A DNA stretch of 64,000 nt from Escherichia coli (GTDB taxonomy: Bacteria > Pseudomonadota > Gammaproteobacteria > Enterobacterales > Enterobacteriaceae): NCBI RefSeq assembly GCF_003334405.1, contig NZ_QOWM01000004.1; one strand, written 5' to 3'. The position numbers were made by a program, and so were the translations under genes. The notes below the pieces were generated by a model, which searched no databases, was not told where the DNA came from, and saw nothing but the letters and a program-made list of their open reading frames with translations. Shown here piece after piece: positions 1,622 to 47,130 of the stretch; within the stretch, counting starts at the first letter, position 1; each line of letters opens with the position of its first letter.

Positions 1622-3462
<1,841 letters not shown>

Positions 3463-3490
3463 ATCCTTTTCAGCCGCGTATTGGCTTGTT

Positions 3491-3507
3491 TGCAAAGCGG
3501 ATGCCAG
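3491..3507 (-). promoter_or_regulatory. sigma54 (-24/-12) promoter of rutA operon
   Basis: Reverse strand reads TGGCAT-ccgct-TTGCA (GG-N10-GC spacing) about 30 nt upstream of rutA ATG. Confidence 0.7.
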
Positions 3508-3569
3508 TTTTTAAAAAGTTAATGTTATTAATCTGTTAACATTACGTTATCTAAAATATCTGGTAAAAA

Positions 3570-3587
3570 GTGGACTAAACGGTCAAA
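3570..3587. promoter_or_regulatory. RutR operator-like palindrome in rutA-rutR intergenic region
   Basis: tggactaaacggtcaa, reverse complement TTGACCgtTTAGTCCA, resembles the RutR box TTGACCAnnTGGTCAA. Confidence 0.55.
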
Positions 3588-3692
3588 ACAGTTGCACATA
3601 AAACATGCATCTGTGCGCGATGAGAGTGCAGAAGGTCGAGGCCGGGCGGGGGTTTTGCTATCCTGTTGCCAATCTACAAGAGGGGAGAGCGC

Positions 3693-4331
3693 ATGACGCA
3701 AGGCGCAGTGAAAACAACGGGTAAACGTTCGCGCGCAGTAAGCGCGAAGAAAAAAGCGATTCTTAGCGCAGCACTGGACACTTTTTCACAATTCGGTTTT
3801 CACGGCACAAGGCTGGAGCAGATCGCAGAGTTGGCGGGTGTTTCAAAAACCAATCTGCTGTATTACTTTCCGTCAAAAGAGGCGCTGTATATTGCCGTGC
3901 TGCGGCAGATTCTCGATATCTGGCTGGCACCGTTAAAAGCGTTTCGTGAAGATTTCGCCCCGCTGGCGGCGATCAAAGAGTACATCCGTCTGAAGCTGGA
4001 AGTCTCACGCGATTATCCGCAGGCTTCGCGCCTGTTCTGTATGGAGATGCTGGCAGGCGCGCCGCTGTTAATGGATGAACTGACGGGCGATTTGAAGGCA
4101 TTAATTGATGAGAAATCGGCGCTGATTGCCGGTTGGGTCAAAAGCGGCAAACTCGCGCCGATTGATCCGCAGCATTTGATTTTTATGATTTGGGCTTCCA
4201 CTCAACATTACGCCGATTTCGCCCCTCAGGTGGAGGCGGTGACAGGCGCGACGTTGCGCGATGAGGTATTTTTCAATCAAACGGTTGAAAACGTGCAGCG
4301 GATTATTATTGAGGGGATTCGACCACGTTAA
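3693..4331 (+). CDS. rutR: RutR, TetR-family transcriptional regulator of rut operon
   Basis: ORF track 3666..4331; start trimmed to MTQGAVKTTGKRSRAVSAKKK (212 aa) with AGGGGAGAG SD; TetR HTH. Confidence 0.93.
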   Translation: MTQGAVKTTGKRSRAVSAKKKAILSAALDTFSQFGFHGTRLEQIAELAGVSKTNLLYYFPSKEALYIAVLRQILDIWLAPLKAFREDFAPLAAIKEYIRLKLEVSRDYPQASRLFCMEMLAGAPLLMDELTGDLKALIDEKSALIAGWVKSGKLAPIDPQHLIFMIWASTQHYADFAPQVEAVTGATLRDEVFFNQTVENVQRIIIEGIRPR

Positions 4332-46077: not shown

Positions 46078-47130
46078 ATGCCAGTGTTACACAACCGCAT
46101 TTCCAACGACGCGCTAAAAGCCAAAATGTTGGCTGAGAGCGAACCGCGAACCACCATTTCGTTTTACAAGTATTTCCACATCGCCGATCCTAAGGCGACC
46201 CGTGACGCTTTATATCAGCTGTTTACCGCGCTGAATGTTTTTGGGCGAGTGTATCTGGCGCATGAGGGCATTAACGCGCAAATCAGCGTACCTGCGAGCA
46301 ATGTTGAAACATTTCGCGCGCAGCTCTATGCCTTCGACCCGGCTTTAGAGGGTTTACGCCTGAATATCGCGTTGGATGATGACGGGAAATCCTTCTGGGT
46401 ACTGCGCATGAAGGTACGCGATCGCATTGTTGCCGACGGTATTGACGATCCTCACTTTGATGCCAGCAATGTTGGTGAGTATCTGCAAGCGGCGGAAGTG
46501 AACGCCATGCTTGACGATCCCGATGCACTATTTATCGACATGCGTAACCACTATGAGTATGAAGTGGGGCACTTTGAAAACGCGCTCGAAATTCCGGCAG
46601 ATACCTTCCGTGAGCAGCTGCCAAAAGCAGTCGAGATGATGCAGGCACATAAAGATAAAAAAATCGTCATGTACTGCACCGGCGGCATTCGTTGTGAAAA
46701 GGCCAGTGCCTGGATGAAACATAACGGATTCAACAAAGTCTGGCATATCGAGGGCGGAATTATTGAATACGCCCGTAAGGCGCGCGAGCAGGGCTTGCCG
46801 GTGCGTTTTATTGGCAAAAATTTTGTTTTTGACGAGCGGATGGGCGAACGTATATCGGATGAGATTATCGCGCATTGCCACCAGTGCGGCGCGCCGTGCG
46901 ACAGCCATACCAACTGTAAAAATGATGGCTGCCACCTGCTGTTTATTCAGTGTCCAGTATGCGCGGAAAAATACAAAGGTTGTTGTAGTGAGATTTGCTG
47001 CGAAGAAAGCGCGTTACCGCCAGAAGAACAGCGACGCCGTCGGGCAGGACGTGAAAATGGCAATAAGATCTTTAATAAGTCTCGTGGACGTCTGAATACA
47101 ACACTGTGCATTCCTGATCCAACAGAATAA
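46078..47130 (+). CDS. trhO: TrhO (YceA), rhodanese-domain tRNA U34 hydroxylase
   Basis: ORF track 46024..47130; start trimmed to [23 protein letters not shown] (350 aa); rhodanese CTGGIRC motif. Confidence 0.93.

Follow-up and report, generated by a model that had tools for sequence, protein, structure and literature searches.

The textbook example of an NtrC-activated sigma54 promoter is glnAp2, at which near-consensus NtrC sites centred at -108 and -140 lie about three helical turns apart. The promoter of the rutA pyrimidine-degradation operon resembles glnAp2 in combining a -24/-12 element with paired upstream NtrC-like dyads on one helix face (here at about -121 and -142). Unlike those of glnAp2, the rutA dyads match the NtrC consensus at only 9-10 of 14 positions and are two turns apart, and a repressor operator absent from glnAp2 lies between enhancer and promoter. 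The glnA and rutA loci occur together in the same sigma54 and NtrC ChIP-seq lists (PMC4591121, PMC4066584). With IHF-assisted promoters of the glnHp2/nifH type, rutA shares an AT-rich spacer holding a candidate IHF match at about -52 between enhancer and promoter, although here the AT block may instead belong to the sigma70 promoter of rutR. The operator, known as the RutR box, is the same 16-bp uracil-sensitive motif as that of carP1 (carAB), with a KD of 8.6 nM at rutA-rutR versus 9.5 nM at carP1 (PMC2952853). However, the carP1 box, located at -184.5, acts positively by anti-repression, whereas the box analysed here represses and lies 3' of the rutR transcription start and 5' of the sigma54 promoter. 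The closest system is the published rutAp/rutR region itself, which has the same sigma54 17-mer, the same RutR 16-mer and the same gene order, the present DNA differing from it by a private SNP at position 3414. This E. coli control region is reportedly also covered by Zimmer 2000, Loh 2006, Shimada 2007 and Brown 2014.

The window, i.e., the whole 64-kb stretch of DNA that was analysed, is E. coli K-12-like DNA with 99.8% identity to K-12 strain JM109, in which rutA, rutR and putA are annotated. The divergent rutA-rutR spacer, which is the control region of rutR and rutABCDEFG in E. coli K-12, occupies positions 3462-3700. The two genes are transcribed divergently, and the gene order rutA<->rutR-putA is that of the JM109 and MG1655 annotations (Table 1). 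This is an already characterised control region, that of the rutA operon and the repressor gene rutR, ordinary except for where the rutA start codon lies. The original prediction of a nitrogen-regulated, RutR-gated operon is supported and describes what was known, the sigma54 and RutR sites being identical to the published ones and an NtrC ChIP-seq peak being on record. Since the region has been mapped experimentally, the main finding brings nothing new on rut regulation; it is of use as a positive control, in that both published sites, for sigma54 and for RutR, were recovered exactly from the bare sequence. What is added comes from a comparison of 80 sequences, the window plus 79 other Enterobacterales rutA loci from many genera. 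The comparison assigns explicit coordinates to two weak NtrC-like dyads that are conserved as a pair and whose distance to the promoter varies only in whole helical turns, makes a case against the 382-residue reference start of rutA and for the 363-residue form, and exposes a conserved, unexplained leader element.

Table 1. Features of the rutA-rutR control region (positions in the window; a point marks a feature without strand).
Feature	Position	Strand	Basis or remark
Probable rutA translation start, ATG 3405 or 3408 (MKIGVF), with Shine-Dalgarno 3412-3417	3403..3417	-	PGAP; conservation
Conserved leader block ACGCGGC-N6-GGA-N2-TGCAGGATGCA-N2-GCCCCGT	3442..3479	-	Alignment of leaders
Sigma54 (RpoN) -24/-12 element CTGGCATCCGCTTTGCA	3491..3507	-	Exact pattern match; PWM; ChIP-seq site OS10
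Conserved AT-rich block TATTAATCTGTTAACA	3526..3541	+	Kept in Enterobacteriaceae as TGTTATTAnnnTGTTAA
RutR operator (RutR box) TGGACTAAACGGTCAA	3571..3586	.	Identical to published site; PWM rank 1
Proximal NtrC-like 17-bp dyad TGCACATAAAACATGCA	3593..3609	.	9/14 to TGCACCAnnnTGGTGCA; centre about -121
Distal NtrC-like 17-bp dyad TGCGCGATGAGAGTGCA (rutA strand TGCACTCTCATCGCGCA)	3614..3630	.	10/14; centre about -142
rutR CDS (TetR-family, uracil-sensing repressor)	3693..4331	+	Translation; RefSeq annotation in JM109 and MG1655

In the sigma54 promoter, TGGCATCCGCTTTGCA at 3491-3506 on the minus strand agrees with TGGCAYN5TTGCW without a mismatch, and it is the only exact match in the 64-kb window, where 0.41 would be expected by chance. 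Its GG (-24/-25) and GC (3492-3493, -12/-13) dinucleotides are 10 bp apart and oriented toward rutA. Scored with a position weight matrix (PWM) built from 41 other ChIP-seq sigma54 motifs, the element reaches 14.4 bits, second among about 128,000 window positions and within the training range of 8.6-22.0 bits. Each of the 80 sequences has the motif, which scores 13.2-19.4 bits and in which GG and TGC are invariant. Binding of sigma54 is established by published data for the very sequence matched here, CTGGCATCCGCTTTGCA being letter for letter the ChIP-seq site OS10 assigned to rutA (Bonocora 2015, PMC4591121), and the rutA/rutR spacer is also a peak in genomic SELEX with sigma54 holoenzyme (PMC8743547). 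The -12 element predicts a rutA transcription start at about 3480, which fits the value of 18 listed for OS10 as its distance from the annotated start of the gene. The EcoCyc status of the promoter is given as 'P' (predicted) in the same table (PMC4591121). The literature searched yielded no mapped transcription start for rutA. The NtrC dependence of rutA is credited to expression arrays (PMC4066584, PMC10891134).

Upstream of the promoter, the RutR-like palindrome that had been placed about 80 nt away is found 79.5 bp centre-to-centre from the sigma54 motif, its own centre at about -98.5 relative to the predicted rutA transcription start. It agrees with 11 of 14 positions of the 16-bp TTGACCAnnTGGTCAA-like consensus, including the key A4 and T13, a level at which the window holds two matches versus 2.95 expected and thus not more than chance. 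With a PWM derived from 14 further RutR sites, the palindrome emerges as the top site of the window (17.9 bits, the next best reaching 12.0), and a box of at least 13 bits is present in 77/80 loci at quantised distances from the promoter. TGGACTAAACGGTCAA is letter for letter the rutA RutR site obtained by ChIP-chip (Shimada 2008, Table 1, PMC2475637), and on the rutA-rutR fragment purified RutR shows a KD of about 8.6 nM, uracil displacing it with an I0.5 of about 9 nM (PMC2952853). The box sits downstream of the rutR transcription start, and its mutation abolishes rutR autoregulation (PMC4325133). Published data thus establish both RutR binding and the role of the box in rutR autoregulation, for a sequence matched here.

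The share of RutR in rutA control is more delicate. In exponential growth rutA mRNA is not raised by deletion of rutR, nor is it changed by RutR acetylation (PMC10891134), which indicates that release of RutR alone is insufficient and leaves the direct effect of RutR on rutA uncertain in size. The box might therefore serve mainly to autoregulate rutR and hardly act on the sigma54 promoter directly, in which case rutA would in practice respond to NtrC only and 'RutR-gated' would be an overstatement. The position of the box downstream of the rutR start, where it is needed for autoregulation (PMC4325133), agrees with this, as does the fact that the box, at about -98, is clear of the promoter and, in the strict sense, of the NtrC 17-mers too. 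Nevertheless, the rutR-deletion experiment was run without nitrogen limitation, with the promoter off anyway (PMC10891134), and reviews of the primary work have RutR repressing rutABCDEFG via this single box. Moreover, across the 80 loci the box is held 23-24 bp from the proximal dyad and phased to the promoter, as expected if it acts together with the enhancer. A RutR box with hardly any direct bearing on rutA is thus rather unlikely, and the reading in which RutR also dampens the sigma54 promoter is preferred.

The geometry of the spacer suits action at a distance. Between the RutR box and the promoter the DNA is 81% A+T, and in the 80 loci the distances separating them form three classes (68.5-70.5, 78.5-80.5 and 87.5-89.5 bp) that differ by whole helical turns, as needed for looping from a nearby enhancer. 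On its other side the box is 6 bp from the edge of the proximal dyad. At carP1 the DNase I footprint of RutR extends 6-8 bp past the box (PMC2952853), an extension that, transferred to rutA, would reach this dyad. The AT-rich block contains an IHF-like match, TATTAATCTGTTA at 3526-3538 (about -52), with one mismatch to WATCAANNNNTTR; one-mismatch matches occur at 1.1 per kb in the window and are commoner in AT-rich DNA. The block may be a candidate IHF site and/or part of the rutR sigma70 promoter. No IHF binding at rutA was reported in the literature searched, and no sigma70 promoter for rutR passed a simple scan of 3400-3760.

Occupancy of the region by NtrC is established by published ChIP-seq, which under nitrogen starvation gives a 94-fold peak (1073221-1073301) at ycdM, i.e., rutA, of ycdMLKJIHG (PMC4066584). 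The bases contacted are probably those of the two dyads. In the literature searched, the NtrC sites at rutA are shown as a drawing in a figure (PMC10891134) and nowhere spelled out as sequence; the two-dyad assignment is therefore made in this analysis. Both dyads retain correctly spaced TGC...GCA ends, and in the proximal one the NtrC end spacing is complete, with TGCA at positions 1-4 and 14-17. The original prediction had proposed a partial TGCAC...TGCA dyad at about 3593-3612 as a possible NtrC half-site: the dyad is there and conserved in position, but it ends at 3609 and is a full 17-mer, one of a pair, rather than a half-site, and the better-matching distal dyad had been overlooked. The match of the proximal dyad means little by itself, because matches of at least 9/14 occur at 2.8 per kb in the window, and no site with at most three mismatches to the NtrC consensus TGCACCAnnnTGGTGCA was found in the rutA-rutR spacer. 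The dyad centres are 21 bp apart, and only two pairs spaced 20-22 bp exist in the 64 kb. At the proximal position a GTGCA 3' arm together with an nGC 5' arm lies 23-24 bp from the RutR-box centre in 72/80 loci, the background being that 6.5% of control windows reach 8/14. At the distal position, 43-46 bp from that centre, at least 9/14 is reached in 74/80 loci and in 1.3% of background windows, the aligned group consensus being TGCACnnnnAnnGCGCA.

An alternative is that NtrC acts from elsewhere, e.g., from GGCACAAGGCTGGAGCA at 3804-3820 within rutR or from near the promoter, and that the dyads are conserved for other reasons, kept for another protein or for the rutR 5' leader RNA containing them. 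The site in rutR agrees with the NtrC consensus at 11/14 positions, better than both spacer dyads, but 11/14 matches arise at the chance rate (four found in the window, 4.6 expected). In addition, it stands alone at a distance of about 330 bp, and it lies within codons of the RutR DNA-binding domain, so that the protein explains its conservation. The ChIP-seq peak maps to about 3449-3529, centred over the promoter and off the dyads; however, the glnK and glnH peaks are shifted likewise in the same study, and the resolution of the method thus does not place the NtrC site. In genomic SELEX with NtrC alone, the rutA/rutR spacer is not among the regions listed above the 40% cut-off, and the dyads would lie inside the transcribed rutR leader if rutR transcription starts 5' of the RutR box, as reported. 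Against this, the spacer dyads have the usual paired layout, on one helix face at -120/-140 and at a promoter distance that changes in whole helical turns. Action of NtrC from another site is therefore considered improbable, and the dyad pair is retained as the putative enhancer.

For the rutA start codon, the analysis departs from the reference annotation. In MG1655 rutA starts at ATG 3462 and encodes 382 residues, whereas NCBI PGAP places the start at 3405 in strain JM109. In relatives, another Escherichia genome among them, stops or frameshifts interrupt the 19 additional codons, while (A)GAGG(T) followed by ATG AAA ATT GG is kept across the aligned leaders. Among the RutA crystal structures, 5WAN has 382 residues and the four later ones have the 363/364-residue form. 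The true start is thus probably 3405 or 3408 and not 3462, which would make the 382-residue reference start wrong and the 363-residue form right. Starting at 3405, the promoter would lie about 86 nt 5' of the start codon and the 5' leader would measure about 75 nt. This affects two points of the original prediction. The near-consensus TGGCAT-N5-TTGCA was correctly recognised, but the interval of about 30 nt given for it applies to ATG 3462 only (29 nt) and fails for the PGAP start. Likewise, the longer open reading frame does begin inside the sigma54 element, TTG 3495 sitting within the -12 element, and was rightly set aside; the shorter start chosen in its place, ATG 3462, probably does not stand either, in view of the PGAP annotation, the broken extension and the structures.

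What was read as the beginning of RutA in MG1655 (codons 1-7, MQDAAPR) is a block conserved in the leader, with the pattern GGA...TGCAGGATGCA...GCnGCGC across loci. GCRGGANGC occurs in the leader of 62 of the 80 loci, 58 of which also have the upstream GGA, and neither a start codon nor a reading frame is conserved with it. ATG 3462 could be the real start all the same, with 3442-3479 coding for an N-terminal extension or a small upstream peptide, MQ[DE]Ax[PQ]R. The 382-residue form is the one in the MG1655 reference and in 5WAN, CAGGA is preceded by ATG, GTG or TTG in most loci, and some of the variable bases are third codon positions (CCC/CCA/CCG, CGT/CGC, GAT/GAC). Yet the frame relative to rutA varies by genus (fused, stopped early or with an overlapping ATG), the extension has an in-frame stop in the Escherichia genome L003, and in loci such as L028, L054, L062, L072 and L076 the block is present with no in-frame start codon before CAGGA. 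Constraint also falls on bases that coding would leave free (the G that precedes CAG, the third base of CAG and that of GCA), while the first two bases of the following codon vary. AGGA is, furthermore, just 1 nt from ATG 3462, and PGAP and the four later structures all favour 363/364 residues. A genuine start at 3462 is hence hard to sustain, and a conserved upstream peptide or N-terminal extension was largely rejected as an account of the block on the grounds that frame and start codon are not conserved.

With translation placed at 3405/3408, the block would become part of the 5' leader. A permissive Rfam scan of 3300-3750 gave no real match (the sole hit had E = 7.8), and RNAalifold on 51 leaders returned no consensus structure past the 2-bp core of a small hairpin. 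An outer stem drawn by hand is paired in 84% with weak covariation, one pair switching between G-C and A-U and two pairs often mismatched, and the folding energy of the single sequence does not improve on that of shuffled versions (z = +0.66). Given this weak covariation and shuffle-level folding, no RNA structure is claimed. The supplement of a CsrA CLIP-seq study lists rutR and not rutA; expression of rutA is not expected without nitrogen limitation. No leader element of rutA was described in the literature searched. The block, with its GC-rich arms on either side of GGA-N-TGCAGGATGCA, is tentatively seen as an undescribed cis-regulatory element, either a small hairpin with an AGGA loop for, e.g., CsrA or a short regulatory uORF, a proposal less likely to be right than wrong. 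If it were true, it would add a post-transcriptional layer to the Rut pathway and make the RutA N-terminus of the reference a misannotation; a regulatory element here could also help to explain why loss of RutR is by itself not enough to turn the operon on. The block is unexplained and possibly the sole new item of the locus.

That the motifs are functionless chance matches is refuted despite window-wide counts for the RutR box (three mismatches) and the NtrC dyad consensus that do not exceed chance, since the sigma54 and RutR sequences are identical to experimentally bound sites and the elements are invariant or fixed in position in the 80 loci.

It is therefore considered very probable that the region works as a divergent rutR-rutABCDEFG switch, activated by NtrC and sigma54 and repressed by RutR. 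In this model sigma54 RNA polymerase would wait as a closed complex on the -24/-12 element and would not initiate unaided. Upon nitrogen limitation, NtrC-phosphate would occupy the two weak adjacent dyads, on the same helix face and two turns apart, oligomerise there and contact the promoter by looping out the A+T-rich spacer, possibly aided by IHF at about -52, and would then drive open-complex formation and transcription from near 3480. Without uracil, a RutR dimer would fill the box between enhancer and promoter, adjoining the proximal dyad. RutR would repress rutR because the box lies downstream of the rutR start, and would also dampen rutA, most probably by impeding NtrC assembly or looping, until uracil releases it. 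Translation of RutA would most probably begin at ATG 3405/3408. The bases contacted by NtrC, the transcription start, the role of IHF and the manner in which RutR interferes with activation are the inferred parts of this model.

A minor observation concerns the Shine-Dalgarno sequence of rutA, which at the private SNP reads GAGTGG here and GAGAGG in K-12 and relatives. None of 5,421 complete E. coli genomes carries the variant, which constitutes the sole difference from JM109 in 3.5 kb.

The region 3462-3700 is, from the RefSeq placement of the genes (see the table), the divergent rutA-rutR spacer of Escherichia coli. The interval 3300-3800 is matched by 5,422 of the 5,426 complete E. coli genomes, with 99.8% identity to K-12 strain JM109. 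The original prediction of a σ54 promoter with a RutR operator and an NtrC-type site in this spacer is confirmed as an observation, and both published binding data and conservation support its interpretation. This control region is already known, and the remaining value of the analysis lies in the explicit pair of NtrC dyads, a correction of the rutA start codon and an unexplained leader block.

Features of the rutA-rutR region (positions in the window)
Feature	Position	Strand	Basis or remark
rutB and rutA		minus	RefSeq annotation
Leader block GGA...TGCAGGATGCA...GCnGCGC	3442-3479	minus	DNA conserved, start codon and frame not
σ54 element TGGCAT-CCGCT-TTGCA	3491-3506	minus (rutA strand)	sequence match
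AT-rich spacer block TGTTATTAnnnTGTTAA	3526-3541		conserved in Enterobacteriaceae
RutR-like palindrome TGGACTAAACGGTCAA	3571-3586		consensus 11/14 and PWM
Proximal NtrC-like dyad	3593-3609		9/14 to TGCACCAnnnTGGTGCA; NtrC end spacing
Distal NtrC-like dyad	3614-3630		10/14, slightly better than proximal; overlooked in the original prediction
rutR	3693-4331	plus	RefSeq annotation
putA	after rutR		RefSeq annotation

The proposed near-consensus σ54 element holds up well. Nothing else in the window matches TGGCAYN5TTGCW exactly (0.41 matches expected). A position weight matrix (PWM) trained on 41 other intergenic, sense-oriented ChIP-seq motifs from Bonocora et al. gives the element 14.4 bits, inside the training range and second among about 128,000 positions. 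The best score (15.0 bits) belongs to TTGGCAAAAATTTTGTT at 46811-46827 (+), which lies in sense orientation within a 368-residue ORF and carries GT instead of GC at -12. In the E. coli σ54 ChIP-seq map the rutA 17-mer CTGGCATCCGCTTTGCA appears as site OS10, assigned to rutA, with the distance to the annotated start given as 18 (PMC4591121), consistent with transcription beginning near 3480. Genomic SELEX with the σ54 holoenzyme likewise has a peak in the spacer (PMC8743547).

As for the RutR box, its consensus match is not above chance across the window; with a PWM trained on 14 other RutR sites it comes out first, 6 bits ahead, and the same 16-mer is the rutA entry of the RutR ChIP-chip table (PMC2475637). 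The KD of RutR for the rutA-rutR fragment is 8.6 nM, and binding is half-inhibited at about 9 nM uracil (PMC2952853). The box is located downstream of the rutR start, and four substitutions in it abolish rutR autoregulation (PMC4325133).

Conservation was assessed in 80 fetched Enterobacterales rutA loci (RutA 83-99% identical), of which 79 were usable and gave 80 sequences with the window, by scanning the 500 bp that precede the conserved MKIGVF start. The σ54 motif occurs in all 80 (13.2-19.4 bits; GG and TGC invariant) and a RutR box of at least 13 bits in 77. The TGCAC...TGCA sequence, predicted as a possible NtrC half-site, has a consensus match insufficient by itself to show that it is real, dyads of its level occurring at 2.8 per kb in the window. 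Its fixed position is more telling: the GTGCA arm is kept 23-24 bp from the RutR-box centre in 72/80 loci, and the distal dyad reaches at least 9/14 at 43-46 bp in 74/80, while control windows reach 9/14 in 1.3% and 8/14 in 6.5% of cases. Pairs of this kind, here spaced by 21 bp, occur only twice in 64 kb. Judged by this conservation, the predicted dyad is a real element, with a narrower span than proposed and as one member of a pair. A better match to the NtrC consensus (11/14, a level found at chance rate across the window), GGCACAAGGCTGGAGCA at 3804-3820, lies in rutR codons for the DNA-binding domain; its recurrence in many loci probably reflects constraint on the protein.

NtrC ChIP-seq of nitrogen-starved cells shows a 94-fold peak at the rut operon, listed under its former name ycdMLKJIHG (PMC4066584). 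This peak covers the promoter (about 3449-3529) and, since the glnK and glnH peaks of the same study are likewise promoter-centred, it cannot place the enhancer. The spacer is missing from the genomic list of SELEX with NtrC alone. NtrC boxes are drawn in the rutA promoter figure of a 2024 paper (PMC10891134); their letters were not found in the literature searched.

Three classes of spacing between RutR box and promoter occur: 32 loci, from Enterobacteriaceae, have 78.5-80.5 bp, 42, mostly from Erwiniaceae and Yersiniaceae, have 87.5-89.5 bp, and 4 have 68.5-70.5 bp. The classes differ by about one helical turn each (~69.5, 79.5 and 88.5 bp). The NtrC-like dyads shift together with the box relative to the σ54 motif, and such whole-turn steps fit a face-of-the-helix requirement. 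Most of the extra ~9 bp in Erwiniaceae and Yersiniaceae (e.g., loci L026-L063) is due to a conserved, half-site-like GACCA block ~5 nt promoter-side of the box, which is absent from Enterobacteriaceae.

The textbook NtrC/σ54/RutR reading is the best supported. A σ54 closed complex would wait at 3491-3507, and NtrC-phosphate would assemble on the dyads at about -121 and -142 (relative to the predicted rutA transcription start) and loop over a spacer of 81% A+T, with RutR between enhancer and promoter, centred at about -98.5. RutR protection at carP1 extends 6-8 bp past the box (PMC2952853) and the proximal dyad begins 6 bp from the box, so that, if this extent holds here, the footprint would touch the dyad; hence, in our view, repression probably acts by hindering NtrC assembly or looping. 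In exponential phase rutA mRNA does not rise in a rutR deletion (PMC10891134), as would be the case if activation by NtrC were required too; this result is compatible with either a large or a small direct effect of RutR on rutA. The AT-rich block, which includes an IHF-like match with one mismatch, may be an IHF site or, equally, part of the rutR σ70 promoter, which a simple σ70 scan did not find.

The rutA start needs correction. Rejection of TTG 3495 was sound, as this codon sits within the -12 element. The choice of ATG 3462 agrees with the MG1655 reference (382 residues), but several lines of evidence argue that it is probably wrong. NCBI PGAP places the start at 3405 in JM109 (363 residues), and seven solved RutA structures have 363/364 residues against one entry with the long form. 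The fate of the 19-codon extension differs between genomes: some keep it in frame, some (Escherichia locus L003 among them) interrupt it with an early stop, and in a third set it is out of frame and its stop overlaps the ATG. At 3462 AGGA lies only 1 nt from the ATG; a Shine-Dalgarno GAGAGG 6-8 nt before ATG AAA ATT GG is conserved in aligned leaders. The promoter thus probably precedes the actual rutA start by about 86 nt rather than about 30 nt. A single base in 3.5 kb, 3414 (A here, T in K-12), separates the window from JM109, and the window's 60-mer around this position occurs in none of the 5,421 complete E. coli genomes matching the stretch. On the rutA strand this changes GAGAGG to GAGTGG within the probable Shine-Dalgarno sequence (R17W in the 382-residue annotation).

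The leader block contains GCRGGANGC, found in 62/80 loci, usually preceded at a few bases by GGA and flanked on either side by GC-rich arms. Candidates are a protein-binding RNA hairpin or a short upstream reading frame. From RNAalifold no more than a very small hairpin (UGC-AGGAU-GCA) remains; an outer stem drawn by hand reaches 84% pairing, but two of its pairs are often mismatched and one exchanges G-C for A-U. Rfam has no family at this leader, and shuffled sequences fold as well as the E. coli leader does. The AGGA loop is similar to CsrA sites; rutR but not rutA is named in the CsrA CLIP-seq supplement, and we would not expect rutA expression without nitrogen limitation. The rutR peak (Potts 2017 supplement) lies within its coding sequence, at about 3979-4155. 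As for a reading frame, some variable bases of the block fall on third codon positions and others contradict coding. The block is absent in some Enterobacter and Buttiauxella (loci L013, L018, L021, L035, L036, L041 and L042), whose leaders are only about 30-35 nt (about 2450-2500 in the numbering of the loci), so the element is dispensable in those lineages. The leader of Buttiauxella gaviniae L032 carries a ~125-nt insertion (about 2340-2470 of that locus), which we take to resemble an ERIC-type enterobacterial intergenic repeat.
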